Source: Balanoglossus misakiensis (Eukaryota; Animalia; Hemichordata). Taken from it: 64,000 bases of DNA. The notes beneath the pieces are model-generated. The model did not search any database. It was not told where the DNA came from and saw only the letters and a program-made list of their open reading frames with translations. This document shows, one piece after another, positions 15,037-51,050 of this stretch. Location of the stretch: assembly GCA_040954595.2 (NCBI GenBank), contig CM082584.2, forward strand, positions 13,199,337-13,263,336. Reading direction: 5' to 3'. A program made the position numbers and the translations under genes. Within the stretch, counting starts at the first letter, position 1, and every line of letters begins with the position of its first letter.

Positions 15037-16462
15037 TCGTCTTAAGCTCTCTTACACCATCGGTCGATGTCCCCGATCAAAACTGTGGCAAACAAGTTAA
15101 AAGTCTTTCTGCTTCGAATTCCGTGTACTTGGTTAGTGTCTGTCAGATATACACCATTACGAGCTGAACTGGTCGAGTGAATGACTTCTCTGTCGAGTCT
15201 TTTCTGTGCCCTGCCCATTCAAATACTCCTTATTCTTGTGCAAATGCGCGGTTAACAAAAGACTCTGTTTTGGTTTGCCTTTGCGCAGTAGGCCTACTTG
15301 CTATTCTATTCAACACTGGTTGGAGTAGAGGTAGTTTCGTGGCCACTTTTGTTTTTTCTTCGCGGGGGGGCAATCCGATATATACGTGAAGACTTTGATT
15401 TTCGAGGTGCATGGAACATGCAGTCAACAGTAAAGCAAACCGCAATGATGACGTGCTTTTCAAGAGTTCACAGTAGCCATATTATACAGTAGTTCGCAGG
15501 TGTATGAAATATGCCATTCATAATAAAACAATTATCACAATTAGATTGATCATCATTATCTAACCGCATACCCCAGTTTTCTATTGTTTGAAAATATGAT
15601 ACATGTCCAAGCAGATCGGTCACAATCGTTCTCCTCTATCAAGGAATGCGATCATATGCCTGGTAGGCACTTTAATTAGCGTACTTGGACTTTACGATCA
15701 ATGGTTTATGAAAAGGAACAAACTGTTTGGACAATGCCAGCTTGGTAAATAACACTAACAAGTTATTAAGCTAACATAAAAACAAATGATCAGCTGTTTT
15801 TTAGTGTGTCGTTGGTGGCGTGATAGACATCTCCAGCACTGACAATCAACGGTATCCTGGTGACGAGTTCCTGTTCAACATGCACAGCAGACCTCTTGAA
15901 TTATGCCTTGTGATAAGTATTTTATTACTTCACAAAATTCTCGACAATATGCCGGGTGTAGAAAATTACTACAGCCACAATTCATTGCATTTGAAGAGCG
16001 CGGAACTTAACCATCCTTGAAAGAAAGAAATGGCATGTTTGTTCTGGATCCTGGGGTCGATAAATAACATCAGTGAAAATATCCAATTTATGTCTTGTCA
16101 CAAAGATGTAAAGCTGCCCTATTTAGGATGCTATATGCGTGAACTGAAAGTATCTAATTCAGAGTATAATTTATGTAAATAGTATGCTTGAATATTTTCA
16201 TGGGACTAATAACATAGATGGTGGTGATTAAATGTAATGAGGAGAACCATGGGATACCAATCACTTGGTAACATTTCTTGTGTGTATAAAAGTGTGTTCA
16301 AATTGCAAAAGTTCTAAGCCTTCCCTGATTGCACAGTTCATTTTTCAGCAGCTGCCATTATTGTTGATTCCAAAGTTCCAGGACAAACATGTAACACCTC
16401 ATTTGGATTGTGTTTGGTGGTAGGCTGGTTCTTCAGCTCTTCAGTGCATCAATTCAACGGGA

Positions 16463-19400
16463 TTACACTTTATTGAATGCCACCACATCCATACTTTGAA
16501 TCTGTAAAGAACAAGAGACATGCAGCAGAATAAAAATCTGATTAAACAGAACTGCTACAAAAATATTGAATCACTTTCAAACACTGTAAATTTTATACCT
16601 TGTCCATTCCACTTACCAAATCCTCAAATTTTTCAATTTCTTCTTCGAGGAAGTCAGTGCCAATCTTGTCGTCCTCCACAACACAGCTGATTTGCAGTTT
16701 CTTGATGCCGTACACAACAGGAATCAATTTTGCTGTGATTTAAAGAAAAGAAAATACAATCACAGAATTACAGTTATCTTTTTATTATTCTCATGGACAT
16801 TTGTAACCACAAATACAATTGGCTACTCAGCTGGTGTTTGATCGATTTGGGCTTCATCTAGCCAATACAATTAATGCTAATACTTACAAGCTCCCCATAA
16901 AAGACCGTCAGCTTCAATTGATCTCACTTTGGATTCAAGGTCTCCCATGTCTAGAGAAGAATTTGATGGAATAAATTAGTTTGGATGGAATCATCACAAT
17001 TATGCAAGCATATGCCAGATGAGGAGGGTGTATCTCAGTAAAACAGAATAACAAAACCCCAAAACTATGCCAAAATAGCTGAATAAAAATCCTACCAGTT
17101 TCATCGTCAAGCTGAAAAGAGAGATGAAAAAAATATTTGGATTAATTTTGTGTACTTTGGATAGTTTTATTCAAACTTAAATTTTTACACTGAAGACACT
17201 CACTGATGAACTTTTGTGCAAAAATTGAAACAAAATCACAGTGCATAATTGACACTTACTGGTTTAACGTCCAAAATGATGTTAGACTTTGCCACAGGAC
17301 CTGGGCCCTCTGTTAAATTAAGAACAAGAAACAAATTTAAACATTGATACTGTTAGTTTTGTACTATACGTAACAATAACCCCATCATTTGTGAAACGAC
17401 ACGAGTTTCACACTCACTTTTGGCCTTTTTCTCTGCATACTCCTTCAGTCTTTGTTCTTTCAGTTTTGCTGCAGCTTCTTCTTCCTGTTTTTGTTGTTGT
17501 TGAGAAAAACAAAGAAAGACTTGTAAGCAATAAACGATAGACAAATGTACTCGAAAAGTATCCCATAGCAGGAAATAGAAACTTGTTTCCTGCTGCAATG
17601 AGTGTGGCAAAGAGACTCCCGAAACCACGGACAACAAACTTGCCTCTGCATCAGAGCCAAACAGATCAATATCATCATCGTCATCATCACTATCTTCATC
17701 ATCATCTTCTTCCACTTTCTTGGACTGAAAAAGACAAACAAAACAAAAATCATCACTTATGCCAAAACACAGCCATGAAGCAGTTTTGAATGTCCAAAGC
17801 AGACATTCACAATTAAAATATTGATGAGAATGATGCTACCCAAAACTTACTGGTGCGGCTGATGGTGCTTGTGCTGCAGCAGCAGATGCAGTTGTTCCAC
17901 TTTTCTCCAAAGCTGCCACTTTCTGCTGCAGTTTGGAAACAGCTGACTGTAAATCTTGAGTAACTGTAAAAAACAAAAAGTCTCAATCTGGTTATATGTC
18001 CAACACACACACACTAACAAACATACATATATACATGCATACATGTACAATACAAGTATATAATTCTCCAACCTTGTCTCAAGTCTTGGTTTTCCTTCTC
18101 CACAGCAGACAGTCTGGATTTCAGTTCACCAACTAGATTATTTTCAACGGCCAGACCTACAGCCAGTCCTGTACCCTAAAGAAAAGAAAACAAAGCACAA
18201 ACATTGGAATTACTACCTTGTCTCATACTTTCACACAGTGTTTTGCTGTTACACCAATCAATGGGGCAAAGACAGTGTTCGTTTGCATAATCATAAACCT
18301 TAGAAGAAATGCATGATTCTGGTCACACTGGTTTGACATCACACTGCAATGAAAGTCACATAACATCACAAGGCCCATCACGGTCAGAATGTTTTTTAGC
18401 CATGCATGCATGCAGGGACTATACGAACCATTACCATAGAAATAGCAAAGAAGTATATACAGTACTTGACAGTCATAGGTTAATCAAGTCAGTTTGTTTG
18501 GAAAACAGGAACAGTGGATGTGCACATACCATTTTTGAATGTGATGTTACATGTAATATTAGAAAGATACCAAATTCATCCAGTCTTTCCTTCATGATCA
18601 GAGATAATGATTATAAAAGAAGCAAAGTTTGGAGGCATGTCATATGTTGTTATTACAACTTTTACCGATGAAAGACAATGTACTGTAATACTACTCCACT
18701 GAGGATATCCCAATGTTGTACACAGACACCAACAACAGTATTCAGGGTAGAATAAGACCAACCATGCACACATGTACAAACTTAAACTGTACACCACCGA
18801 CACAAAACAAGACAACATGGTACATCTACAGGACACAGACAGCCTCTAGGGAGAAGAATACAAAATTTTATTTTGCCTGTTGAAAATTATTGCTTCAGTT
18901 TTATAGCCAAATTATGATAAATTTAAAGTAAAACTTTGTGTGTGAATGATAAAGTTCAGAAGTCAGAAAGATGGTGTACTCACACCAGATGTGCTTAGTG
19001 TGTTTTGGATATTCTTACGGACTCTGGCAATTTCCGAGACGAGGCTACTTGGTGAGCCCTAGAAGGCAATCCATAAGAAACAAAAAAATATACAGTTGAT
19101 AGAAGACACAGAAATCACATACAGTGAAATTTAACCCTTTCACCTACAAATCATTGGTCCAGGCCTAGTGCTTTTAAATGGTCAGGTAGGACCCATACAC
19201 TGTAAAATGGGGGTGAAAAGGTTAAAAGACCAGTGTGAATAATGAAGTGTTAGTTGGTTGGTACACACACAGTCGTGAGAGACAGGTCATCATGAAGAGA
19301 ACCGTTACCAAAGCAAGAATCTAAGGTCAGAGGTCAACCAGCCTCCTACCAACTAAGGGGAGCCCAGCCCACTTTACTGCTGGCATGACATTGCAACCAC

Positions 19401-21575
19401 TGGATGCAGGGAGTGTGTTATATGGACTACAGCAATTGTGTGCATGTGGTGTGTTTGCACAGACATCTAACCATAATTGCAACAGATTCCTAGACTGATA
19501 GAGAAGAGAATTTAAGCACACACACACGACACATACACACACGCACAAGACATGAATTCCTATCATCATACAGCAATATTTTCATTCTTTGCATTCTTAC
19601 AGACAAACCCAGGCATTAATATTTCTAACCAGAGTATCATTTAATGAACTTCTTTACAGTAAAACGATATCTTTGATAATCTAAACAAATCTATATAAAC
19701 TATATAAAATGGAATATAACGAATCTGTGTAAAATATATTTTAATATATAACTTCCACATACATAAACAATACATGTACAACACCAACATTGCTTTTTTA
19801 GTGTATCTAGAGCACACTACATGAAAAGACACTGAAAACAATGTTGCACAAATATGGCAAGTACTGATAAATTGGCAAATAAACATTAAAGACATCTTAA
19901 TGCTCATTCAATCAAGACTTCTGATTGTGGACAACACTGACAGTTTTGATGACATGTAAACAAAAATAATTTCAGAAATACATACATGTAAATGGCTCTA
20001 GTACATTGAAAAGAATAACTGAACTTGTAAGGTAAATTGGTAAGGCATTTTTTTTAAAATGCTAAAGTTTATACTTTAAAACAACTTCCATGTGGAAACA
20101 GAAAAAAAAAGACTCAACCCGTTTTGTTGACAAGTTCTATGAAAGTAGTTACTTCATACTGTCGCTGAGAGTATTACAAGATACCTTAAAGAGTTCATGA
20201 GATTCTGTAACTGAGTTTCTTGACAAATCTTCCTTTGATTTTTACTTTGTAGGAAAAGTAAACATTTTGACAAAAGAATTTCTTTTTATTCTCCACAGCT
20301 TTTGGGGGATCCAAATACGGCAGTGTCCCACTTCCTTTGGTAAAAACAATAAAATGTACATTTCCTGAGATACACAACATTTTACCCGTTTCTGGTAAAC
20401 AACACAACAAAAATATAACATGCTCAATAAAACGTTGTGCAATGTTTTCAGAAACAGTGGCAGTGGGTAAGTCTTTTGTGTATTCATCTGATGTTTTCAT
20501 GTTTTCCTGACAGATGCTCTGTCTCATTGTGCTTTGGTGGTTTTCTGGTATCCTCTCCTCTTGGCCTCTGTAGAGGACGCTGCAAGATAACCATATCAAC
20601 ACAAAATACCCATGTTAACAAAATTATAGTCTACAGATAAAAAAAAATTCTCTTGTATTGAAGGAGTCCAGTGCTGTTGTATTAATCGGATTAATAGAAA
20701 ATTCAGTAAAACTTTGATCAAGTAAGATGGCTGCCAAAATCTATCTCACAAACTGGGATATCTTACCTGTCTCATAGGATACACCTCTACATCACAGACA
20801 CGACACTGCTGGCTGGCGTTCGCAAAGCTTTGGGCACTCATCCAGCGATGATTACAGTGTGAACATCTAAAGCTACCAAAACAGCGTTTTTTCCCTTGAT
20901 ATGGCGTCAGGCCTTTCCCTTTATTTTTCTGCATTGTGCAAATGTAATGGGATAAGACAATGACTTGTATTTTGTGAAGATACCACTTCCCTTTACATGC
21001 CTTTTAAAGATAGTTCCCCTGATGTTGTATCTTGCATGTGTTGAGCTGTCATGCATGGCGAAGTCTGTGCCAGTGCACGGTTGCAACACCAACATCAAGA
21101 CGACACAACTGTTTAATATGCAACTGCATATTAAACAGGATTGCTTCATTTCGTGGTACATAGCTGTGAAATACAGCTATGCTACAGGTATTCTTGATAC
21201 AGAGAAATTTTCCTTTATGGGCCAGTACAGGGTGTGTAGCTTGTAGGGCAGGTACAGCCATGATATACACTGTCACACCTCTGAAGCAGGCCTCTATAGT
21301 CTACAGAGGTACATGGAATAATTTTCCTTCATATATACAGTATTTGATGGAATCACAGTGATATGACACACAACAATGCATACACTCTCTCCATTTTCAC
21401 ACAATTTCTCTCCACATATCATCATGGCAATGGAAACTCACAGAGATACAAGTAAACAAACCTCAACAACTAGTCCAGCGTGCTGACTCGCCAACTTCTC
21501 TTGGTAAACTCTCTCCGCATCCTCAACCCGATGTTTATCAAACCAGATGGATTCAAGCAACAATGGATGTCCCAT
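16463..21575 (-). CDS. EEF1D: Elongation factor 1-delta (eEF1B-delta), 278 aa
   Basis: Coding exons 21462-21575 ([26 protein letters not shown]), 18984-19058 ([13 protein letters not shown]), 18073-18175 and 17851-17963 (leucine zipper), 17644-17724 (acidic DDIDLFGSD), 17418-17484, 17260-17309 ([11 protein letters not shown]), 17096-17111, 16888-16950, 16617-16732 ([30 protein letters not shown]) and 16463-16501 ([11 protein letters not shown]). Total 837 nt with consistent phases. Confidence 0.95.
19131..19225. mobile_element. Tiny piggyBac-type non-autonomous element (MITE relic) in an EEF1D intron
   Basis: TTAA-ccctttcacc ... ggtgaaaagg-TTAA: TTAA duplication plus 10-bp CCC-starting TIRs with 1 mismatch. 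Confidence 0.6.
20484..20928 (-). CDS. ZCCHC24-like 3CxxC zinc-finger exons nested in EEF1D intron 2
   Basis: Exon 20767-20928 (phase 0/0): [54 protein letters not shown]. Exon 20484-20579: [31 protein letters not shown]. Closely resembles the ZCCHC24 C-terminus ([30 protein letters not shown]...VYPHKQRPL). Confidence 0.8.
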
Positions 21576-22071
21576 GGCTGTAGAGCAAATGTTTTAGAAT
21601 GTGAAGATTACTCATTTCAGAACATGGACATCCAAGGCAAATTAATGTTCGTCCGACTTTGCTTTCAAGTGTCATCCTGTGTACTTTAGCCAAGAATTCC
21701 GATGTCGATGTCCCATATGGACTTCAATGGTACATACTACATCTAGTTGAGGTTGGTGGGCGAACATGAAATACTGCTCAGAGATTTGGATTGGAATATT
21801 TACTGTAAAGCTCTCACACTGGGTATACCCACTGTCCCAGTAACAACATCGAAATCGTTTCGACTATGTTTCTACACAAGCAAGTGTACGTGAGGCATGT
21901 CAATTTCGTCGTGTGTACCATGTGCAATGGATATTGCAGTTTCGTCTCCATTTCTTTCTGTTTACTTGCAAAAATTTCCACACAGAAATATTCTCCACGT
22001 TGTGTCTACTACTTTATTGTAACAACACACTCTTAATTGTGTCTGAAAAGAGCCAGTGTAGTACAATTTAC

Positions 22072-22133
22072 CTGTTTTGTGAAGGACCGACTTTGGCAGA
22101 CAAGTGTACAGCTGTAATGGCTGACGAAAAAGG
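22072..22133 (-). promoter_or_regulatory. EEF1D: EEF1D non-coding first exon starting with a 5'TOP/TCT oligopyrimidine tract
   Basis: The minus strand reads tCCTTTTTCgtcagcc...aaaacag|gtaaat. TOP starts are typical of translation-factor genes. The next acceptor (ctctacag) lies 2 nt before the ATG at 21575. Confidence 0.7.
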
Positions 22134-23851
22134 ACACATGCGGGTCGACAGCCTCGTTTTCAGTTTTATTAGGTAATATCTCCGAGCCCAGAATCTAACA
22201 GAACTTTATTATATTCACTTTAAAATAGGAAAAATGTTATACAATCCTAACGGAGAAGAAAATACCCTGGTATTTCTGCATTTTAGGAAGGCAATTCAAA
22301 TGCATATAAATGTTGACCTGACTTGACCCTTGACTCGGGTCACGACCTTATATGCACCGTTATTTGACTGCCATCACCACACGAACCCTTGAATTTTTAA
22401 CCCTTTTTGTTCTGTTTTTCTTTCAAGATTTGTTTTACTTCAATCTACTACCGTTTAATATAATGTGCATAGCAATCGTTGTTCGTATCGAATGTGTTAA
22501 AAATAAATATTTAGCGTTGAAAACAATCAATATCAAACACAAGACATCTTGATGGTTAATGTGTTGAAATATTTATTGGTAAATACTGACAGTAACAGTG
22601 AATTTGTTAACATGTCCAGCATACAGGTGTATTTGTACGCATCTCAAGCAACCCTCCCAAAAGTTACATATTTTTATCTTACTGTAAATCTGATGTAAAA
22701 AAAAACATGAAATGATACAGAATTGGCTAAACTTCACTGAAAATGTTTGCTGTTTTACTGTAGCAGACAGTTACTAGACTCCACTGCATGTTCTAGGAAG
22801 TATGAAATGTGATTAAAAAAAGAATTGCTGAAAACTACAAATCTCAGCCAATTACTGACAGATGTGAAGGGTCATCAAATTGCTGTTTCACATAGTCTGG
22901 AATCAAGACGTTATATGAGGACTCTCATTCCTCTAGTGGAGAAACATCTTTATTGTAAACCAGGATTGCAATTGTAAGAAAATTTGCAGGAAAGGGAATG
23001 AAAATGCACTTCGGACTGAAATACTCAGTGAGAAATACATGGACTTTGTATCATGGCCTGCAACACTACGTTTGAACAAAGCTTGGAGAATGCATTCACA
23101 CACATACACACAAAGTTAATAAATCTCTCTCTTTGTATGAAGAATTGCTTGTCAACTCAGCTAGAGTAATTAGCAGAAATTTTGCACAGAATGTGGTTCA
23201 GATAAGATCAATTTAATCATAAGAAAATTTTCACACAATCATACATTACTGCACATATGAACTTCAAAATGATGTCTCAGAATTTGTTCTGTACTTCTTA
23301 GAGTTAAAATCACTCGAACTGAAACAAACAACAAAAATTGATAACTGTATGTGAAAAACTAATTTGTCTTTCAAAATCTGAGAGTTCTGCTGAGACTATA
23401 CATGTTTACATGTATATGTTTATCTACATTGTAGAAATAATCCCCATCTTGTTTGTCTTTCATAGATATGTCTATCTAGAGTTTTCTAGATATGTTCACC
23501 TGGGTATACATCAATGCAGATATATTCTATGCCCTTCGATATATACATATCCATCCAGATATATTCACTCTAAACATCCACGTAGATAAACACACATCCC
23601 AATACTCATTCATCTTGAGAAACCATGTCATGTCAATACAGGAATGGAGACTGATGAATATTCGGACCAAGAAGCAAGTATTCAACTGTCTTGAAAGCCA
23701 TCAATTTGCTATTTGAAATGTCTTAAACCTACAATGATCTTGAATCATTTATTTGTTCATTTGCAAGAGTTACATGTGAATTGAATAATTATTATAAGTA
23801 AATGAGAAACTAATGCCCCTCTCTTCATTTCAGTGGAATACACAGAGACTA

Positions 23852-48179: not shown

Positions 48180-49878
48180 ATGTTACTATCGGCTGCACGG
48201 TTATCATCTGAAGCAATTGTCTGCCTTATTTTGCTGTCCCATCTCATGAAATCGGGTCAATGTATCTGTAAGTAAACTTCACATGCTATTCAAACAACAT
48301 ATACAAATAGTCGGTCTAGCAGAAATGTTTTCACTATAACAAAGTTTGTCAAACTCTATGAATTTATACTATTCCGAATTTTTCTGATCTGGAAGACGTA
48401 GATTTTTTTTTATTTCTGGTGGTGACAATGTTCACGTGCTATACTTTTATTTTAAATGGTTCTTTTATTTTAAATGGTATGGTATTCGGCCGTTTTCCAG
48501 CAGTAAAAACAGCACCTATTTTTCTCAGGAGTGGGTTAAGATCAACAGGTGGTTAAAACCAAGATTGGGATGACTGCGCAAAGCTGTGATTTAATAATCG
48601 TTGTCGTATGAGTCTCTGAGCTGATGTCAACGAAAAAAGATTAAACAAATACACATATTTATCTTCGAAAGATAACTGTGGTCAGTTATAGGTCGACTAA
48701 TGTTAGTAACATAGGAATGCATGCCCGTCCCAACGCATGTGTAGAGTGACCTATGACCTGGGTCAAGCTCAGGTCAAGCTATCACCTGACATATATGTGA
48801 CACCCTGATGCCAAATAAATGTTTCTCCAAATCCAATATAGATTATATGACAGACTTTTGCAACCAAACAATCTCATCGCACGGTGACAGACTCCAGTCC
48901 CAAGAGGCTGAAACCTATGAGAGTAGCTTAGAATGTGTTGTAACTCTGCAAACCGAAAACGAGAAGGAATACATCTCCATCGATGTAAGTAAATCGTCTA
49001 CGTAATAATATTGTATTGTAAACTCTGAGACCAATCGAAAACAGTTTTATCGATTTACGATTACTAATACTTGGGACATTGAAAAGCTTACCGGTTCAGC
49101 CTGAAGTTTTTTGTGTTCTCTTCATTGTCATTAAATTGACCTCCTATCTTCCCCCTAGTACGAGTGGTATGAACTGGAAAAGGTGGAGACAACCTGTATC
49201 GATTACCTGATGATCTATGACGGCCTCAGTTTACATCCAAACGATATATTGCACTGGATATGTGGGCAGGAAGACGACCCATCAACGTCCACCATGTTTT
49301 CCACCGGAAATATTCTGACGCTGAGATTCTTTACAAATACCTTCATCAATGGAAGAGGATTCTCACTGATATTTACAACAATAAAACGTAAGTTTTATCC
49401 TTTATTATTGATTCAAATGCTATTTCGTTGTGAGATCTGTCTTGCTAGAATACAAATCGATGTGATACCTCATCTATCGTGATTTTCTGTCAAATATAGA
49501 GGGGGATTGCATCGGTGAAGGCGTCTATTATTGTGACAATAACAGATGTATTGATTCATCTGTGGTCTGTGATGGAATCAACAACTGTAGCGACGAGTCG
49601 GACGAGTGGTACTGCGATGAAGATCCGAGTAAGTTGATCTTTAGATGAAAGTCTTAGTGAAGAAATTAGTTCAAGTTTTGTTTTAAGTTTGTTGTGTTCA
49701 CAGACGGTTTTGACAGTGTTAACGTAAATCAGTGTCGTTGAAAGCGTTTTCACGTCAACCTTTATTTCCAGATCTCGTTGGGTTGTACGTGTTTCTTGCG
49801 CTGGCTGGGGTTCTTGCTCTTGCGTTCGTGGCTCTTGGCATATTGCGTGTGACTACCCGGAATCGCCAATCTACATGA
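48180..49878 (+). CDS. CUB + LDL-receptor class A single-pass membrane protein (LDLRAD/NETO-like architecture)
   Basis: Signal exon from 48180; CUB exons 48842-48984 and 49159-49387 (CIDYLMIYDG..ICG..STGNILTLRF..GRGFSLIFT); LDLa exon at about 49500-49628 (YYCDNNRCIDSSVVCDGINNCSDESDE); TM exon at about 49773-49878 with a short tail. Confidence 0.85.
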
Positions 49879-51050
49879 TCCAAGTGGTTCTGAAGAAAGT
49901 AATTGCTACGTCATCGTCTCCAAGAATAAATGCTTTCTCCTGAAGAATTGATTAAGAACACGTCAAGTATGTGATGCTGTCGTAGTTCAATTTAATTAAG
50001 ATCTATTTGAATGTGACATTTGAAATAACTGCACATATGCACATAAATGGCGCAAAGCTCTGGTATAAACAGCTGGTACGAAAATCGAACGTGTACGAAT
50101 AAGAAGGGGAGAGAGAAGGAAAAATACTGGCTAGATATAAAACGGCGATACCAATTGCAACTGTTTATAGATGTCCAGAAGCAAAGCTTCTTTACAAATA
50201 CCTTCATCAATGGAAGAGGATTCTCACTGATATTTACAACAATAAAACGTAAGTTTTATCCTTTATTATTGATTCAAATGCTATTTCGTTGTGAGATCTG
50301 TCTTGCTAGAATACAAATCGATGTGATACCTCATCTATCGTGATTTTCTGTCAAATATAGAGGGGGATTGCATCGGTGAAGGCGTCTATTATTGTGACAA
50401 TAACAGATGTATTGATTCATCTGTGGTCTGTGATGGAATCAACAACTGTAGCGACGAGTCGGACGAGTGGTACTGCGATGAAGATCCGAGTAAGTTGATC
50501 TTTAGATGAAAGTCTTAGTGAAGAAATTAGTTCAAGTTTTGTTTTAAGTTTGTTGTGTTCACAGACGGTTTTGACAGTGTTAACGTAAATCAGTGTCGTT
50601 GAAAGCGTTTTCACGTCAACCTTTATTTCCAGATCTCGTTGGGTTGTACGTGTTTCTTGCGCTGGCTGGGGTTCTTGCTCTTGCGTTCGTGGCTCTTGGC
50701 ATATTGCGTGTGACTACCCGGAATCGCCAATCTACATGATCCAAGTGGTTCTGAAGAAAGTAATTGCTACGTCATCGTCTCCAAGAATAAATGCTTTCTC
50801 CTGAAGAATTGATTAAGAACACGTCAAGTATGTGATGCTGTCGTAGTTCAATTTAATTAAGATCTATTTGAATGTGACATTTGAAATAACTGCACATATG
50901 CACATAAATGGCGCAAAGCTCTGGTATAAACAGCTGGTACGAAAATCGAACGTGTACGAATAAGAAGGGGAGAGAGAAGGAAAAATACTGGCTAGATATA
51001 AAACGGCGATACCAATTGCAACTGTTTATAGATGTCCAGAAGCAAAGCTT
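49327..51050. repeat. Tandem duplication, 2 x 861 bp, identical by eye
   Basis: 49327-50187 is repeated at 50188-51048. ORFs 49556-49753 and 50417-50614 are identical. There is 2-bp TT microhomology at the junction. Confidence 0.95.

Follow-up and report, generated by a model that had tools for sequence, protein, structure and literature searches.

The intron behind the first coding exon of EEF1D in the acorn worm Balanoglossus misakiensis contains two exon-like units, here named Z1 and Z2, that derive from a ZCCHC24-like gene. We tentatively favour, with a probability of roughly 0.4, the reading that these units are spliced to EEF1D and give chimeric products, most likely a protein of 123 aa in which the eEF1Bγ-docking peptide of EEF1D is joined to one zinc ribbon. 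The data would be fitted nearly as well by an independent small gene or by a copy that is dead. All coordinates are those of the window, the whole stretch of 64,000 nucleotides that was analysed, and EEF1D, the two units and the signals discussed with them are read from its minus strand.

The minus strand of the window carries an intact EEF1D gene, modelled as a predicted non-coding first exon followed by 11 coding exons (21575->16463) that encode 278 aa. The predicted first exon (22072..22134) ends in the donor CAG|gtaaat, and its start site was placed from the sequence. At its 5' edge lies a TOP/TCT-like pyrimidine tract, TCCTTTTTC (22134-22126). The original prediction had put the locus under TOP control; the tract is indeed present in the sequence, and its use is presumed. 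Between 22700 and 21801, in windows of 300 nt, the observed/expected ratio (o/e) of CpG was 0.76-0.88, compared with 0.10-0.56 deeper in EEF1D. The first coding exon, E2 (21462..21577), has its ATG at 21575, encodes 38 aa and ends in the phase-0 donor GAG|gtttgt. Its peptide is 89% identical to EEF1D of Ptychodera flava and resembles the human eEF1Bδ peptide of PDB 5jpo_E (E 0.0036), which is bound to the N-terminal domain of eEF1Bγ in that structure (PMC9458455). Judged by this similarity, E2 is a homologue of the eEF1Bγ-docking peptide. The next coding exon of EEF1D, E3 (18984..19058), encodes 25 aa in phase 0/0 and is the candidate acceptor for a form that carries Z1 as a cassette. Nine further coding exons (16463..18175), assigned by the gene model and a PF00736 match, encode the leucine zipper, the acidic region and the GEF domain. 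The eEF1Bγ-binding peptide, the heptad region, the acidic region and the GEF domain are all found in a single intact frame. The closest protein found was EEF1D isoform X1 of P. flava, also of 278 aa, with 227 of 279 columns identical (81%).

Some features of the host gene were recorded in passing. In the GEF domain a Leu (17111-17109) stands where P. flava and Antedon have the Trp of the KPWDDETD motif; its codon is the start of a 16-nt micro-exon (17111-17096), and by eye no alternative micro-exon coding for Trp was seen nearby. The intron 17643-17485 is of the GC-AG type, with an A-rich (CAA)n stretch ahead of the acceptor instead of a pyrimidine tract, and the junction across it is consistent with P. 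flava X1. About 70 nt upstream of E3 there is a TTAA-bounded element of 95 nt (19131-19225) with inverted ends of 14 nt, 13 of which match; we take it to be something like a piggyBac-type MITE. Far from EEF1D, at 49327-51050, an 861-nt unit with an apparent CUB-like exon, so labelled from reading the ORF, is duplicated exactly in tandem, and this is either a very recent event or an assembly artefact. No snoRNA or other Rfam family scored above threshold in 16000-23000.

Z1 (20767..20928) begins 533 nt downstream of E2 on the same strand. It measures 162 nt, encodes 54 aa in phase 0/0, lies between the acceptor tgcag| and the donor CAG|gtaaga and contains two CxxC pairs. After a GT-AG intron of 187 nt (20580..20766) follows Z2 (20484..20579), with 31 aa and a stop codon, so that both units lie inside the phase-0 intron behind E2. 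The coordinates and phases agree with those given in the original prediction, in which the domain had been labelled 3CxxC; that label was too generous, as two CxxC pairs remain in Z1. The attribution of the exons to ZCCHC24 was borne out. Z1 matched the PF17180 zinc ribbon with E 6e-13 and 49 bits, the cut-off being 27, and the first 16 codons of Z2 gave the top score among 3715 YAG-anchored translations of the window when compared with ZCCHC24 tails. The zinc ligands of Z1 (C22, C25, C42 and C45) are invariant, and it has neither a stop nor a frameshift.

Z1 has nevertheless diverged strongly from the family consensus, a consensus of 47 core columns that was built from 73 distinct cores, taken from 146 of the best 150 matches. 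It differs from this consensus in 21 of the 47 columns. The changes fall in 3 of the 22 columns whose conservation is at least 90%, compared with 18 of the 25 others (Fisher p 6e-5), a comparison biased towards Z1 by the use of Z1 itself as the query for retrieving the homologues. At strongly conserved columns the changes are R to H, N to Q and W to F. When neutral evolution was simulated from 35 natural canonical exons, an open frame, the four Cys and the change pattern of Z1 occurred together in 0 of 20000 runs. We concluded from the sequence comparison that purifying selection shaped Z1, whether at its present locus or earlier, in an unseen parent paralogue. Conservation peaks within Z1, and the knuckle and tail regions on either side of it are eroded or absent. 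Six CpG were observed in Z1 (o/e 0.71), a count too small for dating the copy.

An AlphaFold2 model of Z1 alone gave a small β-rich fold with a mean pLDDT of 80. Foldseek with this model placed Shiftless (PDB 9kbo) at rank 1 with E 0.097 and the RNA-binding domain of ZAR1 (PDB 9jko) at rank 7 with E 0.72 and a TM of 0.59. With a family member that bears the tail, ZAR1 9jko and Shiftless 9kbo were the top two matches (E 0.017 and 0.027). No match reached E 0.001 with either the Z1 model or the tail-bearing relative, and VIA-align gave Z 3.6 and 2.7 for ZAR1 and Shiftless. The likeness is thus a sub-threshold lead on the fold, not on the function.

A search with Z1 against 1.84 billion representative sequences returned 599 matches at E<=0.001. 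The best 150 of these 599 contain the same ribbon and are ZCCHC24 or ZCCHC24-like where named or scanned; the CCHC knuckle pattern occurs in 46 of them. Word-index searches with Z1 (29-95 aa and 96-2000 aa) came back blank, and as ordinary ZCCHC24 was missed by them too we gave them no weight. Z1 is up to 66% identical to its closest matches over the 47-residue core, it shares the downstream intron with ZCCHC24, and the opening of Z2 resembles that of the final exon of that gene. Canonical ZCCHC24, in contrast, is composed of a PF13696 knuckle, a PF17180 ribbon and a PF23490 tail, and Z1-Z2 has no intact knuckle or tail site. By its sequence the locus thus derives from ZCCHC24, yet it is not a member of the family by the defining domains. 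A tree of 74 cores over the 47 columns gave Z1 no placement, and its branch had a length of 0.42, the median being 0.032.

The positions of the introns were compared with those of 55 distinct ZCCHC24 loci from 80 contigs. A GT was found at the codon of the Z1 donor in 40 of the 55, and 33 of these 40, which have the downstream intron, also showed, 24 nt ahead of TPYQG, a YAG, which in 10 loci reads as an in-frame TAG and hence must be an acceptor. On this comparison the ribbon exon of ZCCHC24 is ancestrally symmetric (0/0) in most of the animal loci examined. The matching phase of E2 and Z1 had been offered as evidence for a chimera; it is weak evidence, because the ZCCHC24 exon is ancestrally 0/0 and 6 of the 10 coding introns of EEF1D are in phase 0. 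In the proposed comparison of intron positions the Z1 donor sits at the ancestral, conserved codon, and the acceptor lies at -21 nt instead of -24 nt. In two loci, L051 and L055, knuckle and ribbon share one exon and the downstream intron is kept, so that parents without an upstream intron exist.

On these comparisons the Z1-Z2 block was copied, at the DNA level and with its intron included, from a divergent gene of the ZCCHC24 type, whose 3' half it represents. A retrocopy was rejected, the intron between Z1 and Z2 (20580..20766) being kept at its ancestral position. Capture by a transposon found no support either: on either side of the block neither a convincing target-site duplication nor transposon ends were seen, the only perfect direct repeat of 13 nt (20625-20637 and 21295-21307) brackets Z1 alone, and many short pairs arise by chance. 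No second copy of ZCCHC24 was found in the window.

The zinc sites that flank the ribbon in the family have been lost. The statement of the original prediction that there is no separate knuckle exon was confirmed: no CCHC knuckle exon (PF13696) was found, and C-x2-C-x4-H-x4-C is absent from the minus strand of the window. To this we add a probable eroded end of the knuckle, HYI..C (20938..20949), in frame with Z1 and situated where the pyrimidine tract of Z1 would be. A tblastn alignment with canonical ZCCHC24 runs beyond the proposed Z1 acceptor to 20949, and in a post hoc test with 1500 null sites, 3 to 5 of them scored as high as the anchored trace. An in-frame stop lies 26 codons ahead of Z1. 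At the other end, the C-terminal H-CxxC-C site, which 52 of 62 RPL-type tails of the family possess, is missing from Z2, which gave no PF23490 match (Pfam, E<=1). A frameshift hiding the site was rejected, since no frame restores H-CxxC-C. After codon 17 of Z2 homology was undetectable at the protein or the DNA level, with p about 0.3 (0.06-0.14 with the Cys columns masked), and the DNA profile failed to pick up Z2 at all; decay and truncation of the tail are indistinguishable here. Judged by these sequences two of the three zinc sites of the family are gone, and RNA binding may have gone with them. An ORF of 139 aa in another frame (20614-20195) was taken as chance, having no Pfam match and no meaningful blastp match among the best 150.

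Ribbons with fewer partners are also found in other animals. P0002, P0004, P0005 and P0010 consist of PF17180-type ribbons, two or three in tandem, and lack the C-terminal zinc site; P0002 is a RefSeq protein of Eriocheir sinensis, so that ribbon units without a tail occur naturally. Small relatives that have no knuckle and an ATG shortly before TPYQG are L001, with the same two-exon layout, and the RefSeq proteins P0012 of Pararge and P0129 of Actinia; in all of these the zinc site of the tail, missing from Z2, is still present.

The predicted products are 123 aa (E2, Z1 and Z2), 332 aa (278 plus 54, with Z1 spliced onto E3) and, for a start at the ATG 20934, 87 aa. The in-frame routes that had been proposed towards a form of about 123 aa and a form with a cassette of 54 aa are thus open, at 123 and 332 aa, which is necessary for the chimera and not sufficient. 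The donor of Z1 fits the U1 consensus at 8 of 9 positions. The acceptor is less convincing: it lies 21 nt before TPYQG and not 24 nt, it is built of the codons ATG-CAG, and its tract has 9 pyrimidines of 16. At least as many were counted at 55 of 104 decoy YAGs, and of the 11 true acceptors of EEF1D 10 have more, although one has 6. With this codon origin, and with a tract that runs into the trace of the knuckle, the acceptor at 20928 is likely to be new, or else unused. ATGCAG accounts for 52 of the 3721 YAG sites of the window. Among 13 YAGs scored in the 533-nt intron, 20928 is the sole one that opens the frame from E2 into Z1, and each of the remaining 12 leaves 1 to 9 upstream ATGs ahead of the ATG at 20934. 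A perfect hairpin of 14 bp with a 2-nt loop (21109-21138), 180 nt upstream of Z1, spans the candidate acceptors 21123 and 21108.

The ATG at 20932..20934, which had been named as a potential independent start, stands two codons before Z1, is in frame and has an A at -3; it would begin the stand-alone protein of 87 aa. The 533-nt intron contains 16 ATGs ahead of it, the nearest at 20998. The CpG o/e of this intron was 0.19, compared with 0.24 in the other introns of EEF1D; it gave no sign of an own promoter, and a CpG-poor promoter would be compatible with the value. A candidate polyadenylation signal for Z2 as a terminal exon, AATAAA at 20285..20290, follows the Z2 stop by 194 nt, with CA and a U-rich stretch behind it. 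AATAAA has a background of about 1 per kb, so the signal at 20290 is weak by itself. Donor-like sites behind Z2, at 20386 and 20246, match U1 at 6 and 5 of 9 positions.

Chimeric splicing is favoured because only 20928 opens the frame from E2 into Z1, because the other routes bring upstream ATGs and because the intron is CpG-poor. It is favoured also because Z1 diverged under constraint and its donor is strong, because a ribbon can stand without the tail and the Z1 model folds, and because E2 is homologous to a peptide bound to eEF1Bγ and the interval behind it hosts alternative exons in other animals. The same reading is weakened because the selection seen in Z1 could all predate the copy, in an unseen parent paralogue, because the acceptor is mediocre and non-ancestral, and because the phase match is to be expected, no zinc finger is found in the RefSeq isoforms of relatives and no EEF1D among the relatives of Z1. 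Somewhat unlikely, in our judgement, is a dead fragment, by which we mean that a divergent paralogue of the ZCCHC24 type was copied recently, without its 3' end, and that the copy is skipped apart from splicing noise. Truncation would give just what is found in Z2, where homology is undetectable beyond codon 17 and the tail zinc site is missing; the decoy-like acceptor points the same way, as does the absence of a chimeric isoform from the RefSeq listings of two relatives, and fast-evolving paralogues, potential parents, are known in other animals. However, Z1 shows no stop or frameshift and has kept its ligands, and no convincing target-site duplication or transposon ends surround the block. 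As the simulation excludes a canonical exon that was copied long ago and drifted neutrally, the fragment would have to have arrived recently, from a parent that had diverged before.

We regard as unlikely a nested gene on the same strand, knuckle-less and ZCCHC24-like, with its own start site, the ATG at 20934 and a product of 87 aa, in which the apparent acceptor at 20928 would simply be Met-Gln codons. The in-frame ATG with its A at -3, the AATAAA at 20290 and the scarcity of ATGCAG among YAG sites (52/3721) argue for it, as do the small knuckle-less relatives with an ATG near TPYQG (L001, P0012 and P0129) and the knuckle trace directly upstream, which fits a new start following loss of the knuckle. 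Nesting in the same orientation in 5' introns is moreover described as common in mammals (PMC11694760). Against such a gene speak the missing CpG-rich promoter upstream, the 16 intronic ATGs ahead of 20934 and the tail zinc site, which the stand-alone small relatives retain and Z2 has lost. We think it very unlikely that Z1-Z2 is a regulatory exon pair, inclusion of which would mainly lower full-length EEF1D by intronic polyadenylation or nonsense-mediated decay with an incidental peptide. A stop (20484) and an AATAAA (20290) inside the host intron would allow it, and the weak donor-like sites 20386 and 20246 could link Z2 to E3 with a premature stop, but these donors are poor (6/9 and 5/9 U1 positions) and the conservation of Z1 at the protein level would be left unexplained.

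Under the favoured chimeric splicing, the copied block that lies in the intron after E2 would be put to use: splicing from E2 to Z1 at the 20928 acceptor and on to Z2 would form a minor alternative ending of EEF1D. Polyadenylation would presumably take place after 20290, and translation would start at the EEF1D ATG, under the EEF1D promoter and the TOP tract. The product of 123 aa would be expected to dock on eEF1Bγ by its homology to 5JPO, and its lone ribbon might bind RNA, as suggested by the ZCCHC24 family. Human ZCCHC24 binds UGUWHWWA motifs in 3'UTRs and stabilises mRNAs (PMC11624195), RNA binding that the part of that source used here does not map to the ribbon; the lost C-terminal zinc site means that RNA binding was possibly lost too. 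The leucine zipper trimerises human eEF1Bδ (PMC9458455), and without this zipper and the GEF domain the 123-aa product would probably be a monomer with no exchange activity, serving on eEF1Bγ as an adaptor or a competitor. The cassette form of 332 aa, with Z1 spliced onto E3, has an open frame and was ranked below the 123-aa ending because the Z2 acceptor, its open frame and the downstream AATAAA are retained.

Alternative exons are known in the corresponding part of EEF1D in other animals. P. flava has an isoform X2 that omits the 25-aa counterpart of E3 present in X1, and Antedon mediterranea has a similar X1/X2 pair. In mammals the stretch from the EEF1G-binding region to the leucine zipper contains exons 5 and 6, the former of which provides binding to KTN1 and thereby anchorage of the complex at the ER (PMC13231004). 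The short isoforms of mammals and the X1/X2 pairs of P. flava and Antedon thus place alternative exons in the same interval, from EEF1G binding to zipper, as the candidate Z1. Skipping of E3-type exons in P. flava and Antedon parallels the skipping of mammalian exon 5, which suggests, by analogy, that exon skipping at the E3 position is an old deuterostome switch; homology of E3 to mammalian exon 5 we infer from position only. The exons of those short isoforms are native to EEF1D, whereas the source of Z1 is an unrelated gene, and a product of the favoured kind would stop short of the GEF domain. The long isoform of mammals and birds is an N-terminal extension (PMC8576685): eEF1BδL, described for mammals and birds only, adds 367 aa upstream of the short-form start and is a transcription factor (PMC4346937). 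There, as would be the case here, an added exon gives the EEF1D locus a role other than nucleotide exchange, in the binding of nucleic acid; eEF1BδL, in contrast, retains the whole short protein, and the part of PMC4346937 used here mentions no zinc ribbon.

The zinc finger is absent from all 4 RefSeq EEF1D isoforms found (2 of P. flava, 2 of Antedon), a comparison made at the level of the isoforms. No EEF1D match was present among the best 150 relatives of Z1 (blastp, E<1), and no EEF1D sequence was detected in 80 related loci by tblastn with two EEF1D proteins (E<0.1). A search of listings of the open-access literature gave no description of a fusion of EEF1D with ZCCHC24. The insertion of Z1 into EEF1D may be lineage-specific.

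Carried to its full extent the chimeric reading would make the acorn-worm EEF1D a gene with two products, the exchange factor and either an adaptor that has no GEF domain or the cassette form of full length. The second product would carry a ZAR1/Shiftless-like ribbon that was stripped of its neighbouring zinc sites and given a new acceptor from former coding sequence, and, docked on eEF1Bγ, it would bring chosen RNAs to the elongation-factor complex. We consider this extended proposal doubtful. Should Z1-Z2 prove to be a nested gene, or a copy that is dead, the locus would be one of the ordinary outcomes of gene duplication. If the junction between E2 and Z1 is real, a core translation factor has gained a foreign, probably RNA-binding module at the interval that mammals tune by alternative exons. 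In that case eEF1B would have a possible route to mRNA selectivity, the product would be a test of whether a PF17180 ribbon suffices for RNA binding by itself, and the locus would offer a traceable exon capture with a newly made acceptor.
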